A stretch of 64,000 nucleotides of DNA, from NCBI GenBank assembly GCA_965263075.1, contig CBDHGI010000006.1, positions 338,929-402,928 of the forward strand, read 5' to 3'. The notes under the pieces were generated by a model. It searched no databases, was not told the origin of the DNA, and saw only the letters and a program-made list of their open reading frames with translations. The position numbers were made by a program, and so were the translations under genes. Below are positions 21,192-30,429 of this stretch, piece after piece. This stretch comes from Chloroflexota bacterium. GTDB taxonomy: Bacteria > Chloroflexota > UBA11872. Each line of letters begins with the position of its first letter. The first letter of the stretch is position 1.

Positions 21192-21400
21192 GGCACTACC
21201 AGCCTCGGTGGGCGGACGTGCGGTCAGACCTGCCGTATGACGTCAACCGGTTCGCCTCACAGAGCCGAGCTGAGCAGATCAGTTGCATGTCGCTCAATCT
21301 ACAGTCTGGTCCAGGTGCTTGGTGGAAGCCGCCGGCGCTTGGCGGCGGTGCGTTTGCTACGGTGCCGGACCAACGGTGAGTCGTCCGATGGGGAGTTGCC

Positions 21401-22582
21401 ATGACTACGTACCGAGTCGGGTTTCTGGGCGTGGGGCCGCGGGGGTTGAGCCAGGCGCGGGCGTACATGCTGCATCCGCGGGTGGAGATTGCGGCGCTGT
21501 GCGACGTGGATCCGGAGCGGCTGGGCGCGGCGGCCGCGGAGTTCGGGGTGGAACGAACGTACTCCGACTATCGGGCGATGCTGGACGAGGAAAACCTGGA
21601 CATCGTCAACATTCCGACGCGGACGGACCTGCACGCGCCGTTGACGATCGGGGTGCTGGAGCACAGGGCGCCGAAGGCCGTGATCGTCGAGAAGCCGATG
21701 GCGACCAGCCTTACCGACGCCGACCGCATGCAGGAGCTGGCGGAGGCCAACGGGACACGGCTGGCGATTCACCACCAGATGCGGACGACGCCGACGTTCA
21801 AGGTGGCCGACCGGCTGGTCAACGCGGGCGAGATCGGGCCGTTGACGACGATCAAGATTCGCGGCAAGGGCTACTACGGCGGCTACGACATGCTGAACAT
21901 CGGCACGCACATGCTGAACGGCACGCGCCGCTTCGCGGGCAACGCGCGCAGCGTGGTCGCGATGTGCCGGACCGGAGGGCGTCCAACCACGGCCGCGGAC
22001 ATTGTCGAAGGTTCCTACGGATTCGGTCTGCTGGCAGGCGAGGAAATTTCGGCGCTCTATGAGTTCGAAAACGGCCTGACGGCCTTCGCCGAAATGCACC
22101 GCCGCAGCGAGCCGGGCAGCGGCTGGGTGCACATCAAGATCTACGGCGAAGATGGCGCGCTGTGCCTGTACAACTCGCGCGAGCTCTTTGTTCGACGCGG
22201 GCGCGACGAGGTGGTGGGCGACGTGCCCTGGGAGAAGTACGAGCTTTCGGACTCCGAGCGGTTCCTGCACGGGCACGACTACTACGACCACGTCGGAGGC
22301 GATCTGTGGATGGCCGAGGAGACGGTTCGGGCGCTTGACGAGGACCGTGAACACGAGTGCGGCGGCATGGAAGGTCTTTCCGTGATGGAGATGATGGATG
22401 GTGCCTGGATCTCGCACTTCAGCCGGTCGCGGGTGGACTTTCCGCTGGAACGGGGCGAGCACCCGCTGCGGGCCGAGCTGGCTAAGGCGGGATTGTCGGA
22501 GCCAGACCCGGAGCGGGGGAAGTTGCGGTACGGGGATTGGTTGCCGGGAGAGTTGGCGAGGATCGAGGCGACTGGCGGATAG
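21401..22582 (+). CDS. Gfo/Idh/MocA-family oxidoreductase
   Basis: MTTYRVGFLGVGPRGLSQARAY Rossmann N-terminus; 393 aa. Confidence 0.8.
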   Translation: MTTYRVGFLGVGPRGLSQARAYMLHPRVEIAALCDVDPERLGAAAAEFGVERTYSDYRAMLDEENLDIVNIPTRTDLHAPLTIGVLEHRAPKAVIVEKPMATSLTDADRMQELAEANGTRLAIHHQMRTTPTFKVADRLVNAGEIGPLTTIKIRGKGYYGGYDMLNIGTHMLNGTRRFAGNARSVVAMCRTGGRPTTAADIVEGSYGFGLLAGEEISALYEFENGLTAFAEMHRRSEPGSGWVHIKIYGEDGALCLYNSRELFVRRGRDEVVGDVPWEKYELSDSERFLHGHDYYDHVGGDLWMAEETVRALDEDREHECGGMEGLSVMEMMDGAWISHFSRSRVDFPLERGEHPLRAELAKAGLSEPDPERGKLRYGDWLPGELARIEATGG

Positions 22583-22599
22583 TTCGCCGCCTTTCACGC

Positions 22600-22900
22600 C
22601 GGCACTTTCCTTATCCGAGGAAGGTGAATAAGGAGAGAACCGAGCTAGCGCGTGGCGCCTCGACCGGAAGACTCCCCACCCGAAGGAGAGGAGTGAGCGG
22701 AGAGACGTGAGGGGTGAGAGGGACAGGACGGTGGGGATGAGCTGGGGTTGGTTGCTCGGAAGACCCCTCACCCCCGGATCGAGTCCGGGGCAGGTTCTGC
22801 CTCTCCCCCAGGAGAGGTGAAAGGCGGCTCTCCCTGCGGACCTCTCCACTCCCGTTGACACCTGGGCTCGGGGGGAGCCGCCGGAGCCGACGTTGATTCT
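22600..22900. repeat. Intergenic repeat element, copy B: about 300-bp structured purine/pyrimidine-rich region between convergent genes
   Basis: Direct repeats CGGAAGAC(T/C)CC(C/T)CACCCC at about 22667 and 22757; CGGAGAGAC at 22698-22706; CCCTCACCCC at 22765-22774; inverted GTGAGGGGTGAGAGGG vs CCCTCACCCCC; CCTCTCCCCCAGGAGAGG hairpin. No ORF. Confidence 0.45.
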
Positions 22901-22910
22901 TGAACTGCCG

Positions 22911-23282
22911 CTACTCCGTGGCCTGGATAGCGACGCGTCCGCCTTTCCTGACGTCAATGCTCAGGTTATGGCTGTCGAGCAGGGACATGCCTACAAGAGG
23001 GTCTACGCCAACAGCCCCGGTCTCGACGTATCTCGATTGGCCGTTCCACAACACGGTGACGCCGTAAACGTCAAAGGCGGTCTCGCTGCCGTCGGCCAGA
23101 ACCGCCTCGCCATCACCCACGACAGGCAGGCCCAAGTCCGCCACCAGCATCGGCGGCAAGGTCAGGTAGCCGTTGAAGCCAGTATCAATCACGGCGTCGA
23201 CTTCCAGCGTCCGCCCCGCTGGGCCTTGCAAGGGAAGGGTTACGACGGCTTCGAGATTGGAGTTCACGAAGCCCTCGATCAC
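22911..23282 (-). CDS. Retropepsin-like clan AA aspartic protease (DTGF-type, TIGR03698-like)
   Basis: 123 aa with the active-site motif VIDTGFNGYLTLP (D-T-G-F), preceded by a hydrophobic beta region. It overlaps the upstream gene by 4 bp. Confidence 0.7.
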   Translation of the reverse strand: MIEGFVNSNLEAVVTLPLQGPAGRTLEVDAVIDTGFNGYLTLPPMLVADLGLPVVGDGEAVLADGSETAFDVYGVTVLWNGQSRYVETGAVGVDPLVGMSLLDSHNLSIDVRKGGRVAIQATE

Positions 23283-23590
23283 CCGGATCTCCGCAGGGAG
23301 CCGCCGCCGAAGTGATATAGCGTCCGGTGTCCGACCCGCATCAGCCAGATTTGGGCGTTCGGGCGCTGGTTGCGCAGACTGTCGGATGCGGCAATGGCAT
23401 TGGCGCCGAGGGCGTAGTCCCCGCTGTCCACGTCAATGGCGACGACCTCGCCAACATGGCCGGCCTCCACCTGCCGCTGGATGTCTCGCTGGTATATCGC
23501 CTTGCCCAAGCGGGCGATCTCATCCCGCGGGCGGCGTGGGGCGGTGGGCCGTGCCGCGTGCGCCGGCGTCGGGGTGTCCGAGTTTCTCAT
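23279..23590 (-). CDS. Small hypothetical protein translationally coupled to the retropepsin-like protease
   Basis: The ATG at 23590 (MRNSDTPTP...) is the first in-frame ATG within the listed ORF. The protein-like region is EIARLGKAIYQRDIQRQVEAGHVGEVVAIDVDSGDYALGANAIAASDSL. Its stop overlaps the protease start by 4 nt. Confidence 0.5.
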   Translation of the reverse strand: MRNSDTPTPAHAARPTAPRRPRDEIARLGKAIYQRDIQRQVEAGHVGEVVAIDVDSGDYALGANAIAASDSLRNQRPNAQIWLMRVGHRTLYHFGGGSLRRSG

Positions 23591-24059
23591 CCGTTCCCGT
23601 TTCAATGGCGCACTTCCATGGCGGCATCCTACCGACTTGCGGGAGGAACGACGGGCGAGCACTGCTGGGGGCCCACACCCTGAAAATCCTGGCCTTAGAC
23701 GCTGATCGGGTGGCCCTGCATGGGCTTCTGGGACCAACCGGTCCGTTGCACCCAATTTCCGACGCCGGGGCCGCGCGGTCGTTCGCGCCGTGGCCATGCG
23801 ACGCAGACAACGGGCGGATCAGTCCCCATTAGGTCTATGCGGGCTCAGGCGGCCCGTACGCCGATGGTAGCAGCCTCGCGACCCATGCCCTCACCCGCTG
23901 ACCCTAGCCATTCAGGACCGGACCTGTGACGCAATGCGGCGACAGGTGGGTTCAACCGACACTCAATGGCGAGGGTCAGCGGGTGAAGTTGCGCGCTGGA
24001 TTTACTAAATCTTGTACGATTACTCGCCTTGACCGTATACGTCAACACAGGAGATTGAA

Positions 24060-24128
24060 ATGGACTGGACTGCTATCTTCACTTCGGTAGTAACGGCGAC
24101 AGTCACAACGATTGCACTACGATTGTGA
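24060..24128 (+). CDS. Candidate 22-aa hydrophobic small peptide (MDWTAIFTSVVTATVTTIALRL)
   Basis: An ATG 7 nt downstream of AGGAG (acacAGGAGattgaaATG), inside the low-GC insert; the peptide is a single predicted TM helix. Too short for the ORF track. Confidence 0.35.
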   Translation: MDWTAIFTSVVTATVTTIALRL

Positions 24129-24175
24129 TTCCTCTTCTTCCGAATTCTCGTGAATCGTCATCCCGCCAACCTATT

Positions 24176-24547
24176 TCATGCAGGATACTTTTCTTGCCGA
24201 AGCTTCTCTATTAGCTCATCAGCCTTTCCTCTTTCGTATACTTGCGAATAAAAGCCAAGCGCTAAATCTACGACTTCTTGTACGTGCTTGGGCTGCGTTC
24301 CTTGGGATGCTGGCTTTAGACCTCCATCTTTGGTCGTCGCAAGCATAATAGGTGCAAAAACTCTTCCTTCAATTACATCAGTGCCTGCAAGTCGAGCCAA
24401 GTCCATAGTGAACTTCAGAACGTTGCGAGTCGCCCGTTTGGCAATCCAGGAGTCATTTGTCGCTAAAGCCCGCTGAAGCTTTGTTCGTATAAGGTTCGCA
24501 ACATCATCATAGGTGTATTCCGGTCGGGATGTGTCGTGATTCATCAA
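24176..24547 (-). CDS. Hypothetical protein (orphan, low-GC codon usage)
   Basis: 123 aa with balanced protein-like composition (MMNHDTSRPEYTYDDVANLIRTKLQRAL...) and a GAAGGG RBS. Its GC is far below the window mean. Confidence 0.55.
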   Translation of the reverse strand: MMNHDTSRPEYTYDDVANLIRTKLQRALATNDSWIAKRATRNVLKFTMDLARLAGTDVIEGRVFAPIMLATTKDGGLKPASQGTQPKHVQEVVDLALGFYSQVYERGKADELIEKLRQEKYPA

Positions 24548-24632
24548 AGACCCTTCTGTAGCCTATAACTCCATTAACGCTAAGCCATGTTCGGCTAGTC
24601 GTCAACTGAAAGAGTGGGCCATTCTGCCCGGC

Positions 24633-25500
24633 CTACTCTTCCTTTTCAGTCTCCGGCATCTTCGGGACGTGTGGCAATGTGTGAGGCGGGGTCATCAGCA
24701 CCGCCGTCAGAAAGCAGTCGAACGCTTCCTCGCTGACTCCCTTGCTTTCCTCCCGGTCGCCGTCTCGTGCGCCCTTGGCTGTGGGTCGTCCGGTGGGCGC
24801 TTGCCCTGTTCGTCGCCACCCGTTGCCTCGGATAGCCTGTCGTTGCCCATTCTTCAAGTCCTCATAGCTGAGGCGGGTGCCGTTGACGTGTCGCAAGAAT
24901 ACATCAATTCGATCTCCTTCCGACAGGCGGCGAAGTTTCCACCGCAGTGCAAACTCCCGTAGGTACAGGTCAAAGTGCTTGTCCGACCAAACGTGGTAGA
25001 CGCCTTTGTGCGCTCGCTTCAGAATTGCCCAAAAGGATTCAATAGTTTGCTTATGTACGTCACCGTTGACATATTCGCCAATATTGTGATTCACTTTGCG
25101 GTGTGCATAATTGTTCATCTTATTATACGAAGGAAGGTAGTCTGTATAGACACGCGAGCCGCGGTAGACCCTTTTCCTAATAAGTCCCTGTAGAACGCTG
25201 CGCCACGGCTCGGAACACGTTCTGTAATTAGATCACCGTTTCGCTCAGCCGTACCCACCACGATTTGAAAGCCGTCTTGGCAATTTGCAAATCTCTTTTT
25301 GTGTGTCGTCGCCTGTTGCTTCAACCGACAAACGCCTCATCGACTTCAATAACGCCTCGCAGGATTTCGACGGCCATGTTATCTGCCACGTGCCGTAAGC
25401 GGGATAACATAAACCATGCGGTCTCCTGGTGTATGCCAGTGGTATACTGTGAAGGCGATGAGACAGCGTCCGAAAATCCATGAGTTTCAGTTGGTGCATC
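24633..25500 (-). mobile_element. IS1595-family transposase remnant (pseudogene: 5'-truncated, at least two frameshifts and one in-frame stop)
   Basis: Three frames together read AWFMLSRLRHVADNMAVEILRGVIEVDEAFVG* / LKQQATTHKKRFANCQDGFQIVVGTAERNGDLITERVPSRGAA / SVLQGLIRKRVYRGSRVYTDYLPSYNKMNNYAHRKVNHNIGEYVNGDVHKQTIESFWAILKRAHKGVYHVWSDKHFDLYLREFALRW. These match the IS1595 DDE domain (VEVDETYIGG...VERGG...TD...Y...H..VNH..GEYV.G.VHTNTIE.FW). The zinc-ribbon N-terminus is missing where GC returns to high at about 25500. Confidence 0.75.
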
Positions 25501-25722
25501 AAGCCGGTTGGTCCCGGCTTCTGGTCGGGTGAGTCTCGAGGCGGAGTCTGGGGAGTGACGCTGGTGGTTCGAGGGGCGTGAGGAGTCGGGAGTGATGGCG
25601 AGTTGGCTCGGGCAGGTCGTTCGCGGTTGGGCGGGCCGGTCACGAACGGGGCGCCTGGGGACGGGGATTGGCGTGTGGTCGGGTCTGTTGCCAGGGGGCG
25701 GTGGGGCGCCTAGGGTTTGGGT

Positions 25723-26097
25723 TTGGAGACGACTTTTGACATCGAACCCACACTGATGCGTCGGGCGCGCGACGAGGCGGCGCGCCGGGGGATCTCGGTG
25801 TCCGAGCTAGTGGCGGCGGGCTTGTGGCACGTGCTGGAGACCGAGGCTGCGGATACGGACGCGCCGGAGCCGAGAGTTGCCGAGGAATAGATGACCAAGG
25901 TATTGCCGCCGCTGCCCACCTGCAAGGGCGGTGGCTTTGTCGCGGATGTGGCGGACCGCAAGGCACTGGAAAGAGCAATGGCCGCGAACGACAACGACGG
26001 GGCATTGCCTCCGTTGCCGACGTGGCACGGTGGTGGTCCGGCGCTGGTGGATGTTGCCGACCGTCGGAAGCTCTACGAGGTGCTGGACGCCGACTGA
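25723..26097 (+). pseudogene. RHH (CopG-like) VapB-type antitoxin interrupted by an in-frame TAG (25888-25890), with a tandemly duplicated C-terminal toxin-binding motif
   Basis: N-terminal part TTFDIEPTLMRRARDEAARRGISVSELVAAGLWHVLE is a ribbon-helix-helix. The TAG is followed in frame by ATG and two copies of LPPLPTxxGGGxxxVDVADRxxL (compare the LP.F.GGG..GVDL.SN.AL..LD tails of RHH VapB antitoxins). It is translationally coupled to the PIN fragment. Confidence 0.55.
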
Positions 26098-26292
26098 GTG
26101 CTGGTTCTCGACACCAACGTCTTGTTCGACGCGGCTGTCGAGAGTTCGGAGTTTCACATCCGGCGCTCCGAGCGATTGGACCTGTGGCGGCGTGAACGGT
26201 CGTCCGTTCTGCTGACGTGGAACGTGTGCTATGGATTTCTGCGGATTACGACTCACCCGCGCGGCATGTTCTCGACCAGCCATTGGCCCTAA
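26098..26292 (+). pseudogene. Truncated PIN-domain toxin (VapC N-terminal 64 aa only)
   Basis: VLVLDTNVLFDAAVESSEFHIRRSERLDLW...CYGFLRITTHPRGMF carries the PIN N-terminal DTNVL motif and a GFLRIxTHPR motif. The stop at 26290 comes after 64 codons, whereas full PIN domains are about 130 aa. A convergent gene end lies 32 bp downstream. Confidence 0.65.
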
Positions 26293-26324
26293 GGGCTTCT
26301 CGGGAGGCGATCCCTTGGGCCGCG

Positions 26325-26537
26325 TCACGCCAACATCAAGCGCTCGCCCTTCGGTTCAGGGATGGGATCTCCAAATTCCCGCGCGGTATCAAGCCAAAGG
26401 TCCATTGCCTGGTTGACGTTCCGCAGGGCCGCCTGCTGGGTGTCGCCATGAGCCAGGCAGCCTGCGAGCTCGGGAACTTCGGCGACAAATACGCCGTCTT
26501 CCGTGCTCCAGTAGATGATGATTTCATACTGGTGCAT
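26325..26537 (-). CDS. HicB-like / UPF0150-family antitoxin (RNase H-like fold, short form)
   Basis: MHQYEIIIYWSTEDGVFVAEVPELAGCLAHGDTQQAALRNVNQAMDLWLD...GDPIPEP matches the HicB N-terminal domain. Confidence 0.7.
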   Translation of the reverse strand: MHQYEIIIYWSTEDGVFVAEVPELAGCLAHGDTQQAALRNVNQAMDLWLDTAREFGDPIPEPKGERLMLA

Positions 26538-26549
26538 CAGTCGCTCACC

Positions 26550-26795
<246 letters not shown>

Positions 26796-26999
26796 TCACT
26801 CAATGTTGGCGCTTCGGGGTTCGGCGCGATGTCAGGTCCATGGGCAGTGTGCCAGCCGAGGTTGGTGAGCAAGTCAAGGGCGGCGCGCTCGACCGGCGAT
26901 TCAGTGATGGTGGTCATTTCCTCCGACCGCGCGACCACTGGGGATACGCTGACAATCGCGCTAGCAGGAATCCGCCCGTAACTCCGCCACGCTGACTGT

Positions 27000-27145
27000 C
27001 AGGCCCTTTTCGAGGCGAGGTTGATCGCAAGCGGACCGTCGCGGTCAAGCGCCAAGCGGGTCGGATTGTCGAGGATGTACTGGCGAATCTTCAGCAGGGA
27101 TGCGTCGCCGCGCACGACGTATTTGTAGTAGCTGCGCTGCCATAG
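27000..27145 (-). pseudogene. C-terminal remnant (48 codons) of an IS200-like/RAYT (Y1 HUH) transposase
   Basis: Manual translation gives LWQRSYYKYVVRGDASLLKIRQYILDNPTRLALDRDGPLAINLASKRA*, matching the conserved C-terminal WQRxYY(D/E)H(V/I)IR...L..I..YI..NP..W motif of DUF1568/RAYT-type transposases. An upstream stop follows immediately, and no N-terminal HUH region is in frame. Confidence 0.4.
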
Positions 27146-27342
27146 TCAGCCATGGAATGGCGGCCAGTTTCGCGTCTTGACCCCCGGGTGGATTCCACGG
27201 TGGTCAACGATTTATGCGTGTCGATCACATCGCCCAAGCCGACCCGTCTTGCCGTAAGGGCGCCCCTACCGGGATGCGGGATGGGCGGGGATGGGGGGTG
27301 AGGGGGTAGGCTCGCGGACGGACGTTTGGCGGGAGGGCTTCT

Positions 27343-28581
27343 GTGCGCATTGAGGATCTGGCGGGGACGACGATTGGCGCCGCCGTATCCGGCGGGCTGG
27401 ACAGTTGCACGATCACGCGCTGGCTGGTTGAGGAAGGCGTGGGCGTGGTGGCGCTGACGGCCGATCTTGGTCAGCCGGACGAAGACGACATCAACGACGT
27501 GGCCGAGCGCATGCGCGTGGCGGGGGCGAAAGAAGCCTTGATCGCGGATGCGCGCGAGGCGCTGGCGCGGGCCGGCCTGGAAGTAATCCAGGCGCAGGCG
27601 AAGTACGAAGGCGGCTACTGGAATACCACCGGTATTGCACGGTACGCGACCGTGGCGGCGATCCTGCCGGAATTGACGGAGCGCGGCCTGACGGTGCTGA
27701 GTCATGGGGCCACCGGGCGGGGCAACGACCAGGTTCGGTTTCAGCTTGCGACCAACATGCTGGCGCCCGGCGTGCAGGTGTACGCCCCCTGGCGCGATCC
27801 GACGTTCCTGGAGCAGTTCCCGGGACGACGCGAAATGATCGCGTACTGCGAGCGCGAGGAAATTCCGATCCGGGCGACGCTAGACAAGCCATATTCCACC
27901 GACGCCAACCTGCTGGGCCTGACGCACGAGGCCGGTTTGCTGGAGGAGCTGAGTACGCACGCGCAGTTCGTGGCGCCTGAGATGGGCGTTTATCCGCAGG
28001 ACGCGCCCGATGAGACGACGCGCGTATCGATCCGGTTTGAGGCCGGTACGCCGGTGGCGATGGACGGGGACGACCTTTCGCTGCTGGACATTTTTGAGCG
28101 GGCCAACGCAATTGGGGGCGCGAACGGGCTAGGCATTGGGCTGCATACGGTGGAGAACCGATTCGTTGGGATCAAGTCGCGCGGGGTGTACGAGGCGCCG
28201 GGCATGGAATTGCTGGGCAGCGCCTACGAGTACCTGTTGCAGTTGATCCTGGACCGGCGGGCTCGTCCGGTGTTTGATTCGTTGTCAGCAGCGCTGGGGC
28301 GGCAGATTTACGAAGGCTACTGGTACGACCTGGCGAGCACGGCGCTGCGGAGGGCCATCGGCGAGTTCACGAGGCTGGTGACGGGCACGGTGCACGTGGA
28401 CGTGTATCGGGGTCACGCGCAGTTCGCGGGCGCGGAGGACGCGCCACATTCGCTCTATAGTGACGCGTCCAGCATGGAGGGCATCGGAGACTTCGACCAT
28501 GTGGATTCCGAAGGATTCCTGGGCGTGCTAGGTGTAAGCGCTCGCGCAGCCAACGCCGGCGGGCAGACGAGCCGCGAGTAG
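27343..28581 (+). CDS. argG: Argininosuccinate synthase
   Basis: AVSGGLDSC (PP-loop AYSGGLDTS variant), with conserved ...RFQLATNMLAP...GIGLHTVENRFVGIKSRGVYEAPG blocks; GTG start with a GGGAGGG RBS. Confidence 0.85.
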   Translation: MRIEDLAGTTIGAAVSGGLDSCTITRWLVEEGVGVVALTADLGQPDEDDINDVAERMRVAGAKEALIADAREALARAGLEVIQAQAKYEGGYWNTTGIARYATVAAILPELTERGLTVLSHGATGRGNDQVRFQLATNMLAPGVQVYAPWRDPTFLEQFPGRREMIAYCEREEIPIRATLDKPYSTDANLLGLTHEAGLLEELSTHAQFVAPEMGVYPQDAPDETTRVSIRFEAGTPVAMDGDDLSLLDIFERANAIGGANGLGIGLHTVENRFVGIKSRGVYEAPGMELLGSAYEYLLQLILDRRARPVFDSLSAALGRQIYEGYWYDLASTALRRAIGEFTRLVTGTVHVDVYRGHAQFAGAEDAPHSLYSDASSMEGIGDFDHVDSEGFLGVLGVSARAANAGGQTSRE

Positions 28582-28584
28582 CCC

Positions 28585-30429
28585 ATGACGATGATCATGA
28601 TGCGCCGGCCAGATGTGGGCACGCTGTCGGTTGCGGCAGCGGCGGTACTGGGATTCCAGGCGTTTCGCGTATTTACCAGCAACATGTTCTGGGTTGTCGG
28701 CGAGACGTCGGACCGCGTGCTGTTGGCGGCGCTTGTTTTCGGCGCGCTGGTTCTGTGGGGCGCAGCCGGCCTGCTGGCTCGTTTTGTTGGGATCGCACAC
28801 GGGCGCCGAATTGCGATCGTGCTGCTGGCCGGTATGGCCGTGGTCGGCCAGGCTTCCGGGTCGCCGGGAGCCGACGCGTGGATTGGCGCTCTCGGCACGA
28901 TCGCGTTCGGTTGGGTCCTGGCCCTGTGGGTCGCAAGTGTTGGCCGGGCCGCCGGGCAGGGACTGGCCTTGGCGTTTACGGCGGACGTAGCGATTCGCGC
29001 GTCGTTCCGGACGGTGGACGCGCCGTTCAGCGACTCGCCGTGGGCGGCGGGAATCGTGGCGCTGCTTGCCGTATTGGCACTCGGCGGCGGCTGGCGGGCA
29101 GCGGGACGGCAAGCTGAATTCGGTGCTCCGTTTCGAAGCCTGCCATTACTTGGCCTGGGACCGGCCTTGATGGTGTTCATGGCGTTCAGCGGAAACTTCG
29201 GGCAGACAGCGGCCCCGAGCGGACTGGACCTGCGGGCCGCACTGATCTGGGTTGGCGCTGCCGCGACCGCCGGCCTCGCATGGTCGTCGATCTCGGCGAA
29301 GTCTGGTCGAGCAATGAGTTTCGTTCACGTGCTGGCGGCATCCGCTGCGATGGCCGTGGGCGCCTGGCTCGCCAGCGCGGCACCGACCAGCACGTTACCT
29401 AGTCTTGCACTGGTGGGACTTGGTCTGCCAGTCGTGGTGACGGCGTTATTTCCTGAGGACCGGAAGCCGCGGACGTCGGCCTGGTCCGTAGCCGCGCTGA
29501 CCTTGAGCGGTGTCGCGCTTGTGGCGCTGCTGTTCATCTTCTATTCGTTCTACGCGCCGCCCTGGGTGTTGCCGGGGGCGGTCGCGATTACCGTTGTCCT
29601 GGCGCTGGCCTCGACGTTGAGCCGCCACCAGGAGCCGGGCAAGCGGTTGATTCCGGCGCTGGCCCCGCTGCTGTTCCTGCCGCCTTTCGTCGTGGGGGTG
29701 ATCTCAGGCGCCCCGTCGCCCGACTCGGCACCAATGGGCGCGGGCGCCACGGTAGACGTGATGACATACAACATCCGGCAGGGATTCGGGTCGAGCGGGA
29801 AGTTTGACCTGGAAGCCGTAGCGCGAGAGCTCGAGGCGCGACCGACCGACGTGGTGGCGCTGCAGGAGATTGGGCGCGGGTGGGTGATTTCGGGCGCCGC
29901 CGACACGCTGGCGTGGCTGTCGCACCGTCTGGACATGCCGGCCTACTACGGCGCGAACATGGGTGACCTGTGGGGGAATGCCGTGCTCACGCGCCTGCCG
30001 GTGTTTGGAGCCACGAACACGCACTTCAACAGCGAGGGCCGGGTCCCTCGGGGATTCCAACGCATTAGCCTGCAGACGACGGGCGCTCCACTAACGATCC
30101 TGCACACGCATCTCGATCACGAGGATGACGGTGACACCGTACGGGCATCACAGGTGGTGAGGATTCTGGAGGACTGGGGGAATGCGCCGCGAACAATTCT
30201 GCTGGGGGACTTGAACTCCAAGCCCGACTCGGTCGCGATCCGCACGCTGGCAAATGCCGGCCTTGTTGATGTCAGTCCGGATGGGCCGCTGACCTATCCG
30301 GCGGCGGGTCCGGAAGAGCGCATCGACTACATCTTCGTCACGCCGGACCTGACGGTGATTGAAGCCGAGACGCGGCAGTCGCTGGCTTCGGACCATTTGC
30401 CGGTTTGGGTATCGCTGGCCGGAAGCTAG
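28585..30429 (+). CDS. Polytopic membrane protein with C-terminal endonuclease/exonuclease/phosphatase (EEP) domain
   Basis: About 10 TM segments in the N-terminal 380 aa. The C-terminus has VDVMTYNIRQGFG...VVALQEIGRGW...ILHTHLDHED...LLGDLNS...SDHLPVWVSL (the EEP catalytic motifs). Confidence 0.7.
   Translation: MTMIMMRRPDVGTLSVAAAAVLGFQAFRVFTSNMFWVVGETSDRVLLAALVFGALVLWGAAGLLARFVGIAHGRRIAIVLLAGMAVVGQASGSPGADAWIGALGTIAFGWVLALWVASVGRAAGQGLALAFTADVAIRASFRTVDAPFSDSPWAAGIVALLAVLALGGGWRAAGRQAEFGAPFRSLPLLGLGPALMVFMAFSGNFGQTAAPSGLDLRAALIWVGAAATAGLAWSSISAKSGRAMSFVHVLAASAAMAVGAWLASAAPTSTLPSLALVGLGLPVVVTALFPEDRKPRTSAWSVAALTLSGVALVALLFIFYSFYAPPWVLPGAVAITVVLALASTLSRHQEPGKRLIPALAPLLFLPPFVVGVISGAPSPDSAPMGAGATVDVMTYNIRQGFGSSGKFDLEAVARELEARPTDVVALQEIGRGWVISGAADTLAWLSHRLDMPAYYGANMGDLWGNAVLTRLPVFGATNTHFNSEGRVPRGFQRISLQTTGAPLTILHTHLDHEDDGDTVRASQVVRILEDWGNAPRTILLGDLNSKPDSVAIRTLANAGLVDVSPDGPLTYPAAGPEERIDYIFVTPDLTVIEAETRQSLASDHLPVWVSLAGS

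Follow-up and report, generated by a model that had tools for sequence, protein, structure and literature searches.

A probable decaying copy of a cargo-carrying IS1595-family insertion sequence in a Chloroflexota genome, and the family to which it belongs

Among insertion sequences (ISs) of the IS1595 family, MTnSag1 is about 1.7 kb long and has an oriT, and members of the ISNha5 and ISNwi1+ subgroups range in size from 3.4 to 7.9 kb; in these two subgroups we know of no hairpin, overlapping open reading frame (ORF), or palindrome targeting. The published signature of the IS1595 family and of transporter ISs consists of an 8-bp target duplication, inverted repeats (IRs) of ~25 bp, and 5'-GG ends (PMC8101967, PMC5704250); the term transporter IS is used here in the sense of Siguier et al. 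2009, as that work is cited in PMC11891212. A 2006 survey gives the IS3, IS110, IS4, IS256, and IS5 families as targeting palindromic repeats, and IS1595 is not among them (PMC1525189). Here, we analyze a stretch of 64,000 nucleotides (nt) of a Chloroflexota bacterium (assembly GCA_965263075.1, contig CBDHGI010000006.1, positions 338,929–402,928 of the forward strand), referred to below as the window, in which positions 23730–25515 (1,786 bp) are very probably a non-autonomous, decaying copy of a cargo-carrying (transporter) IS of the IS1595 family. The host has a G+C content (GC) of ~65%, and its close relatives come from sponge metagenomes.

Ends, composition, and intact relatives of the element

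Two 25-nt IRs with the core GGGACCAACC-N7-TGCACC bound the element: the right terminal IR at 23730–23754 on the plus strand (GGGACCAACCGGTCCGTTGCACCCA, matching the other end at 20/25 positions) and its inverted partner, the left terminal IR, at 25491–25515 on the minus strand (GGGACCAACCGGCTTGATGCACCAA), both starting with 5'-GG. The core was found by a long-range inverted-repeat search on intact loci, in which the pairs lie 4.4–6 kb apart. In the window it occurs exactly twice, in inverted orientation (23730–23752 and 25493–25515; 0.21 expected by chance), and it is absent from 77 distant IS1595 loci with a total length of ~1.2 Mb. A GGCTTCT repeat abuts each IR terminus as a target duplication, at 23722–23729 beside the right end (GGGCTTCT) and at 25516–25523 beside the left end (GGCTTCTG), both read on the plus strand. 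The same IR pair bounds the intact copies L001, L008, L009, and L010, where the 8-bp duplications are perfect (ACCCCTTC, TCTAAGAA, TCCAAAAA, and TTTTTAGA). An earlier sequence-only reading of this DNA had set the insert at 23950–25500 and had spoken of missing inverted repeats; both repeats are present, and together with the flanking repeats they move the boundaries to 23730 and 25515.

Other candidates for the ends were rejected. IRs hugging the transposase gene alone, sought by exact 9-mers and by seeded searches, were inconsistent between loci, the true IRs being the distant pair, and a ATCTTAACACAG block upstream of some transposase genes is unpaired and was dismissed as a left end.

The low-GC patch on which the sequence-only reading was based is confirmed, with GC of 44–53% in 200-nt intervals at 23,900–24,700 and 24,900–25,500 against 60–71% in both flanks, but it is broken by an internal bump of 62–63% at 24,600–24,900, because the transposase gene has its 3' end there, a part rich in R/G/P and D/E. 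All elements mapped at both ends have a GC of 51–54%, which is 13–15 points lower than that of their hosts (64–68%), and the drop is therefore a property of the element interior. The visible patch is shorter than the element because the extreme ends, a hairpin near the right end, and the 3' tail of the transposase gene are richer in GC; the spacer between the hairpin and the right IR (23755–23886, 69% GC) is likewise part of the element though not GC-poor.

Five intact relatives were fetched, all from Chloroflexota metagenomes, and the four in which both ends were mapped span 4.4–6.0 kb. In a search of 5.8 billion proteins, the intact transposases (P0002 and P0004–P0007) were 337–360 amino acids (aa) long and 59–69% identical, with both PF12760 and PF12762 domains, and the relatives score 183 bits on NF033547 (cut-off 75). 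The sole named intact relative is a protein of a Chloroflexi metagenome-assembled genome (MAG). Three further close loci (L011–L013), all in Chloroflexota MAGs, were obtained from 185,579 species-representative genomes, while JGI metagenomes and IMG/VR held no hairpin or IR match and, at best, a transposase of ~42% identity; the nearest relatives outside the clade are ~40% identical. Since genome and metagenome searches gave few close loci, the clade is rare, and the sample and MAG names suggest sponge symbionts. In the window itself, ArgG and an oxidoreductase fall into clusters with Chloroflexota names.

Read from the left, an intact element comprises a 25-bp left IR starting with 5'-GGGACC; a variable 5' cargo made up of a putative structured non-coding block of ~150 nt, small ORFs, and sometimes a tRNA gene; the transposase gene (zinc ribbon, helix-turn-helix, and DDE), over whose 3' end lies an acidic ORF of 60–67 aa in the +1 frame; a passenger slot, the gene content of which differs between copies; and a conserved hairpin of ~100 nt, sometimes followed by convergent genes, before the right IR. 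The transposase is the sole recombinase gene called within the elements, and the 8-bp duplication flanks the whole unit. Because no other recombinase gene was called inside these units, the IS1595 transposase would be the enzyme that moves all 4.4–6.0 kb, in the manner of a transporter IS.

The transposase pseudogene and the passenger genes

The transposase pseudogene occupies 24646–25437 on the minus strand and corresponds, in tblastn and global alignments, to residues 108–352 of the intact 353-aa relative P0002, distributed over four frame segments. The conceptual join of the frames matches the Pfam profile PF12762 (DDE_Tnp_IS1595) with E=3.6e-26 over positions 2–152 of 153 and retains the motifs EVDE, YTD, and IESFW..K, which bears out the assignment of the broken gene to IS1595 from the letters alone. 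The peptides quoted in support of that assignment, VEVDEAFVG, VVGTAERNGD, and RVYTDY..VNHNIGEYVNGDVH..TIESFW, are all found by translation on the minus strand, in three different frames.

The frameshifts were mapped by alignment to P0002 and to the DNA of three intact copies, as the sequence-only reading had advised. The first segment (25437–25303, P0002 residues 108–153) holds an in-frame TGA at 25321–25323, which replaces the second Gly of the conserved VEVDEAFVGG and is the stop already suspected after VEVDEAFVG; the segment stops where 1 nt has been lost near 25302, within a run of A5. The second segment (25302–25204, up to residue 185) ends in a 1-nt deletion near 25203, and the third (25202–24784, residues 187–324) ends in a net −1 shift near 24783, which puts the transposase tail (24783–24646, with no lesion at its end) back into the first frame. 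All four segments lie on the minus strand. The gene is thus indeed broken across three frames, but by three frameshifts rather than two.

Residues 1–107 of P0002, with the zinc ribbon (PF12760) and the N-terminal half of the helix-turn-helix, are absent from the window; PF12760, a domain that only the IS1016 subgroup of the family lacks, is present in the intact relatives P0002 and P0004–P0011. The zinc-ribbon N-terminus is therefore missing, as had been noted, although it was lost by an internal deletion and not at the edge of the IS. The retained left end (25438–25515, minus strand) contains the left IR and ~50 nt of left-end sequence, with the junction of the large deletion near 25438–25442. 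Over 74 nt it shares 81% identity with the left end of the intact copy L008 (2348–2420), where this segment lies ~1.9 kb upstream of transposase codon 108. Since the left 78 bp are kept and match L008 at that distance, an internal deletion of at least 1.9 kb has taken place, which cost the element its 5' cargo, promoter, and zinc ribbon.

All lesions, compared in 40-nt contexts, are base-for-base identical in the sister assemblies L006 and L172, which come from other samples. They are therefore not assembly or sequencing errors. Overall, the PF12762 domain, the stop codon, the three frameshifts, and the loss of codons 1–107 agree with the decaying IS1595-family element that had been proposed.

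Between the IRs, an intact passenger gene encodes a protein of 122 aa (24176–24544, minus strand; 123 aa from an upstream TTG, by which length we refer to it), with a predicted five-helix bundle. The ORF is full length, and its termini are conserved. The sole close homologues of the protein, P0096 and P0097 (120 aa, 78–79% identity), are encoded in L001/L002 and L004, each 180 bp behind an IS1595 transposase gene and in the same direction; this transposase gene is complete in L001/L002, whereas in L004 it is truncated solely by the end of the contig, and the DNA alignment is unbroken from the transposase gene through the end of the 123-aa gene. The ratio of nonsynonymous to synonymous substitution rates (dN/dS) in the family is 0.16–0.22, and the ORF is therefore a real gene. 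The protein had no match in Pfam, NCBIfam, PADLOC, or PHROGs, an exhaustive HMMER search gave 7 relatives only, and an AlphaFold2 model (pLDDT 81) had no PDB fold match with E<1. What the sequence-only reading had called an orphan is a passenger gene, whose homologues follow IS1595 transposase genes.

On the plus strand, positions 24060–24128 hold a 22-codon stump (MDWTAIFTSVVTATVTTIALRL) of a convergent 107-aa gene, with a deletion junction at 24113/24114. At this point L006 and L172 have 277 extra bp and an intact 107-aa ORF, and the deletion is specific to the window strain. The 107-aa protein has an N-terminal hydrophobic helix (membrane-anchored) and a Cys-rich region. The stump is probably the small peptide ORF that, with the 123-aa gene, had been described as flanking cargo delivered by the IS; both belong to the element, though as internal passengers between the IRs.

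On this reading, the lineage of the window first lost at least 1.9 kb (5' cargo, promoter, and codons 1–107) and then gained the nonsense codon and the three frameshifts, and a further deletion of 277 bp, in the window strain alone, cut the convergent 107-aa gene.

In other intact copies the same slot is occupied by a membrane protein of 170–192 aa, a TIR-like protein of 358 aa, a 78-aa ORF, or a four-gene set, and 5–10 further ORFs, tRNA genes, and the TIR-like protein lie between the IRs. No relaxase and no replication gene was found among the cargo proteins scanned. The 358-aa passenger of L008 (5461–6537) has an N-terminus resembling TIR or nucleoside 2-deoxyribosyltransferase domains (PADLOC TIR effector, 2.7e-7; phrog_3634, 1e-24) and is possibly a defence-type effector. 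tRNA genes were observed inside the IRs of L009 (734–806, Gly-TCC) and L010 (1977–2051, with an odd anticodon loop), which suggests that transporter ISs of this clade carry tRNA genes as cargo. A tRNA-Arg gene also lies at 566–637 of L007, ~120 bp upstream of the transposase gene, in a copy whose left end was not mapped.

Conserved structures, overlapping ORF, and target site

The hairpin of the window (23887–23990, minus strand) is a rod-like structure of 104 nt with a 24-bp outer stem, two inner helices, and an asymmetric internal loop, and its folding energy is −64.3 kcal/mol (z=−6.6). In every clade member, a hairpin with (near-)perfect complementary arms of 22–26 nt, 46–48 nt apart, directly follows the passenger slot; the distance to the right IR in the relatives is 110–850 nt. 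The covariance model R1, built from six hairpin copies, scored 104 bits (E=1e-24) on the window hairpin, which is the best value of all copies and the single match in the window, and it recovered two copies outside its training set with E of 1e-16 and 4e-12. Elsewhere in 1.3 Mb the model found nothing convincing, the best being a 33-bit, 51-nt GC-rich hairpin in L006 and, apart from it, three hits with E>0.002. Across the 8 copies, compensatory changes occur in 24 of the 37 pairs, 90% of cells pair as compared with 31–46% in slid controls, and none of 500 shuffles reaches these values (0/500).

We rejected several known identities for this hairpin. The only Rfam match in 23000–26500 was a 19-bit chance hit elsewhere, and none was obtained over the hairpins of six relatives. 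An intrinsic terminator is not indicated, as there are no terminator-like sites in 23600–25700 and no T-run follows the hairpin in any copy. As an attC site it lacks R''/R' boxes (no 3'-side GTTRRRY), has a conserved centre, and is fully paired in its stems in L001 and L010; none of the loci has a called integron integrase. The resemblance CGGTTG..CCC had suggested an internal copy of the IR, which was also dismissed, as the similarity across elements does not exceed that of shuffled controls.

An apparently structured second block of ~150 nt was observed in the intact elements 5' of the transposase gene, on the same strand, with stems that show compensatory changes (L008 2662–2809, L010 2258–2423, L009 1381–1526, L011 1–94, and L001 3116–3247). 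This block has no Rfam match and is deleted in the window copy. In addition, Rfam hits to ftsZ-DE RNA were obtained at the same relative position in L001 (2675–2750) and L011 (2678–2754); at 34–37 bits they fall below the gathering score of 72, and these sites are possibly another conserved hairpin in the 5' cargo.

The acidic ORF of 60–67 aa, which overlaps the transposase 3' end in the +1 frame, is open in 7/7 intact copies and follows the pattern MG.D.SC...EAFDSFLTAIL.TPPD.LPPIPEN.E.EE, the motif lying past the transposase stop in L001 and L004. Among its 22 motif codons, there are 6, 3, and 18 variable columns at codon positions 1, 2, and 3, respectively, and the +1 frame is therefore the frame under selection. 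In 157 distant IS1595 loci no such ORF was found, nor does any of these have it as an in-frame tail of the transposase, an origin that we had considered; its three matches among 5.8 billion proteins are all stand-alone. It may be translated alone or reached by frameshifting. In the window, remnants of this ORF lie at 24633–24850 on the minus strand, with the start (MGNDRLSEATGG..) in one frame and the C-terminal motif (EEAFDCFLTAVLMTPPHTLPHVP..) thrown into the DDE frame. Because the third frameshift splits the acidic ORF, the 161-aa ORF at 24633–25118 is a chimera of the C-terminal half of the DDE domain and the tail of the small ORF. Four otherwise invariant motif residues are substituted in the window, which is consistent with relaxed constraint.

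Removal of the element and one copy of the duplication leaves the palindrome AAGAGTTTYTT-NN-AARAAACTCTT, set in conserved CGCGCGC and G-run flanks. Six independent insertions (L004/5, L007, L008, L009, L010, and L011) occupy the identical position in this palindrome, in either orientation, and adjoin different host genes. An uninterrupted palindrome with both conserved flanks is found at L008 2066–2089, 280 bp from the occupied copy, so the target is a repeated host element. In L001 the element is inserted instead in the loop of a GC-rich perfect hairpin. The difference between "type A" and "type B" ends, considered as an inversion of the interior, was traced to the two halves of the interrupted target, with insertion either way round, and the inversion was rejected.

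Alternative explanations, surroundings, and known systems

The same lesions and boundaries bear on other explanations of the patch. If the frameshifts were sequencing or assembly errors, the transposase would really be intact, and it is true that the first frameshift falls in the A5 run and that the sister assemblies consist of long-read contigs at low coverage (9x and 17x), one of them with a split argG; but the identity of the lesions in three assemblies from three samples, the position of two frameshifts outside homopolymers, and the fact that neither the TGA nor the loss of codons 1–107 can be an indel error leave this explanation almost no probability. It is very improbable, too, that the low-GC block is a fragment of a larger acquired island or prophage with the IS pseudogene as an incidental passenger. 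The low-GC DNA lies wholly within the IR- and repeat-bounded 23730–25515, and the rest of the island has host-like GC; each gene of the low-GC part has a counterpart in IS copies or lies between the IRs; and the IR and hairpin patterns were not found in the viral contigs searched. What speaks for an island is that 21352–27258 varies between strains, with restriction-modification genes there in strains of identical ArgG, and that this stretch is rich in toxin-antitoxin-like genes. We also consider it unlikely that the host has domesticated part of the element, keeping the 123-aa gene and perhaps the hairpin for its own function while the transposase decays. Such a reading draws on the full-length 123-aa ORF against four disabling lesions in the ~800 nt of the transposase gene, on the dN/dS of that family, and on a hairpin that is perfectly preserved and scores best of all copies. 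At the lesion density of the transposase, however, ~1.9 lesions would be expected in 372 nt, and finding none has an estimated probability of ~0.15, so the intactness of the gene does not depart significantly from chance; the dN/dS for the most part records divergence that preceded the decay, deletion of the adjacent 107-aa passenger gene has already begun in the window strain, and no function or family was found for the 123-aa protein.

With regard to the hairpin, the preferred explanation, held with low confidence, is that it most likely works as RNA: as a 3' stem-loop it would close or stabilise the transposase–cargo transcript and insulate it from convergent transcription. A U·G pair is invariant in 8/8 hairpins and would be a mismatch on the opposite strand, and G·U cells outnumber A·C cells by 18 vs 11, which weakly favours an RNA from the transposase-sense strand. 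A role as DNA, the main alternative, is possible but on the doubtful side; the hairpin could be an accessory transposase site, serve as an origin of transfer or of replication, or mark a hotspot of recombination at which cargo is exchanged. In its favour, the cargo differs on both sides of the hairpin, which is the fixed landmark of a variable region, the invariant CCCT/AGGG in the stem suggests sequence-specific recognition, the transposase targets a palindrome, and two members of the IS1595 family, MTnSag1 and tISCpe8, are counted among the integrative and mobilizable elements (PMC5704250). Against it speak the lack of a relaxase or replication gene among the scanned cargo proteins, a hairpin–IR similarity not beyond chance, the absence of attC-type R''/R' boxes, and the U·G pair. 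A more far-reaching idea, which we regard as highly doubtful, is that the hairpin and the 5' block are functional nucleic-acid parts of the transposition machinery of this IS1595 clade; the hairpin, as RNA or DNA, might then help the DDE transposase to find its palindromic target or to assemble the ends. If true, this would be a DDE transposon assisted by a nucleic-acid structure, with a loose parallel in IS110 and IS605, which are RNA-assisted systems.

Several points weigh against our overall reading of the locus as a decaying transporter IS with a conserved 3' hairpin. The duplication in the window, GGCTTCT, covers 7/8 positions, the 8-mers GGGCTTCT and GGCTTCTG being offset by 1 nt, and the window flanks only partly resemble the consensus target. 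No true empty site was found at the locus, as contigs that share an identical ArgG have either this remnant or another island. The presumed mobility of the 4.4–6 kb unit is deduced from IRs and duplications. Finally, the hairpin is without a U-tract, and the G·U/A·C asymmetry only weakly favours an RNA over a DNA role.

Around the element, the region 21352–27258 upstream of argG is strain-variable, and in contigs with identical ArgG, ResIII and N6_N4 methyltransferase genes replace the toxin-antitoxin-like genes and the IS remnant. At 25717–26292, a VapB-like ribbon-helix-helix gene is interrupted by an in-frame stop after ..RVAEE, with a PIN-domain ORF of only 64 aa beside it; this toxin-antitoxin pair also looks decayed. 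On the other side, a conserved pair of ORFs of 103 and 123 aa, which overlap each other, adjoins the IS at 22911–23590 (minus strand). The 123-aa ORF of this pair has, by eye only, the look of a retropepsin-type aspartic protease, and neither ORF has a Pfam match at E<=1. A listed ORF of 172 aa extends across the right IR, and its 5' end has probably been placed too far upstream. One intergenic C/T-rich repeat (CTCTCACCCCTCAC..CTCCGCTCACTCC) is common to the window (22681–22720) and the unrelated Chloroflexota contig L001 (1749–1781 and 1871–1912), with 88% identity. Comparison of L006 2468–4211 with window 27258–29000 showed an island identity of 99.8% and an argG identity of 96.9% with 5 gaps, argG being split in L006, which suggests recombination or a local assembly error.

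The window copy itself is an ordinary dead transposon, and the family, as an IS1595 transporter IS, is a known kind of element. For annotation, this means that the patch is to be read as a dead transposon, the 161-aa "transposase" ORF as a chimera, and the 123-aa orphan as transposon cargo. Four features of the family appear to be undescribed: the fixed palindromic target, the covarying 3' hairpin, the structured 5' block, and the overlapping small gene. This IS1595 lineage would haul 3–5 kb of DNA, with tRNA genes and genes of unknown function, from one sponge-symbiont genome to another, and genes could plausibly flow in this way among symbionts that have not been cultivated. Under selection, it keeps a hidden overlapping gene as well as two non-coding elements with structure. 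These features offer testable handles on how a DDE transposon chooses its target and regulates itself.

Compared with described systems, the elements resemble tISCpe8 and MTnSag1 in having an IS1595-type DDE transposase, ~25-bp IRs, an 8-bp duplication, and passengers between the IRs (PMC5704250). Those two are, however, shorter than 2 kb, come from Firmicutes, and carry a lincosamide resistance gene, whereas the present clade spans 4.4–6 kb, belongs to Chloroflexota, and carries several uncharacterised and tRNA genes; it also differs from them in the conserved hairpin of ~100 nt, the small ORF in the +1 frame, and the fixed palindromic target. The ISNha5 and ISNwi1+ subgroups, as described by Siguier, Gagnevin & Chandler 2009 to the extent cited in PMC11891212 and PMC8101967, are likewise IS1595 elements enlarged by passengers, with a zinc-finger N-terminus and an 8-bp duplication. 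Insertion at a defined position in a repeated extragenic palindrome (REP) is shared with the REP-targeting elements IS1397 and ISKpn1 (IS3) and IS621 and ISPpu9 (IS110) (PMC1525189, PMC12288879). ISPpu9 also has a small structured-RNA gene downstream of its transposase gene, although REP-targeting ISs differ from the present clade in transposase family and chemistry. Transcripts can be stabilised or retro-regulated by 3' stem-loops such as REP stabilisers and the lambda sib site. The hairpin of the present clade may be comparable to these, since it too is a long, stable stem that lacks a U-tract and stands behind the final gene of a mobile-element operon; a REP is much smaller than this structure of 104 nt, which has three helices and conserved internal loops.

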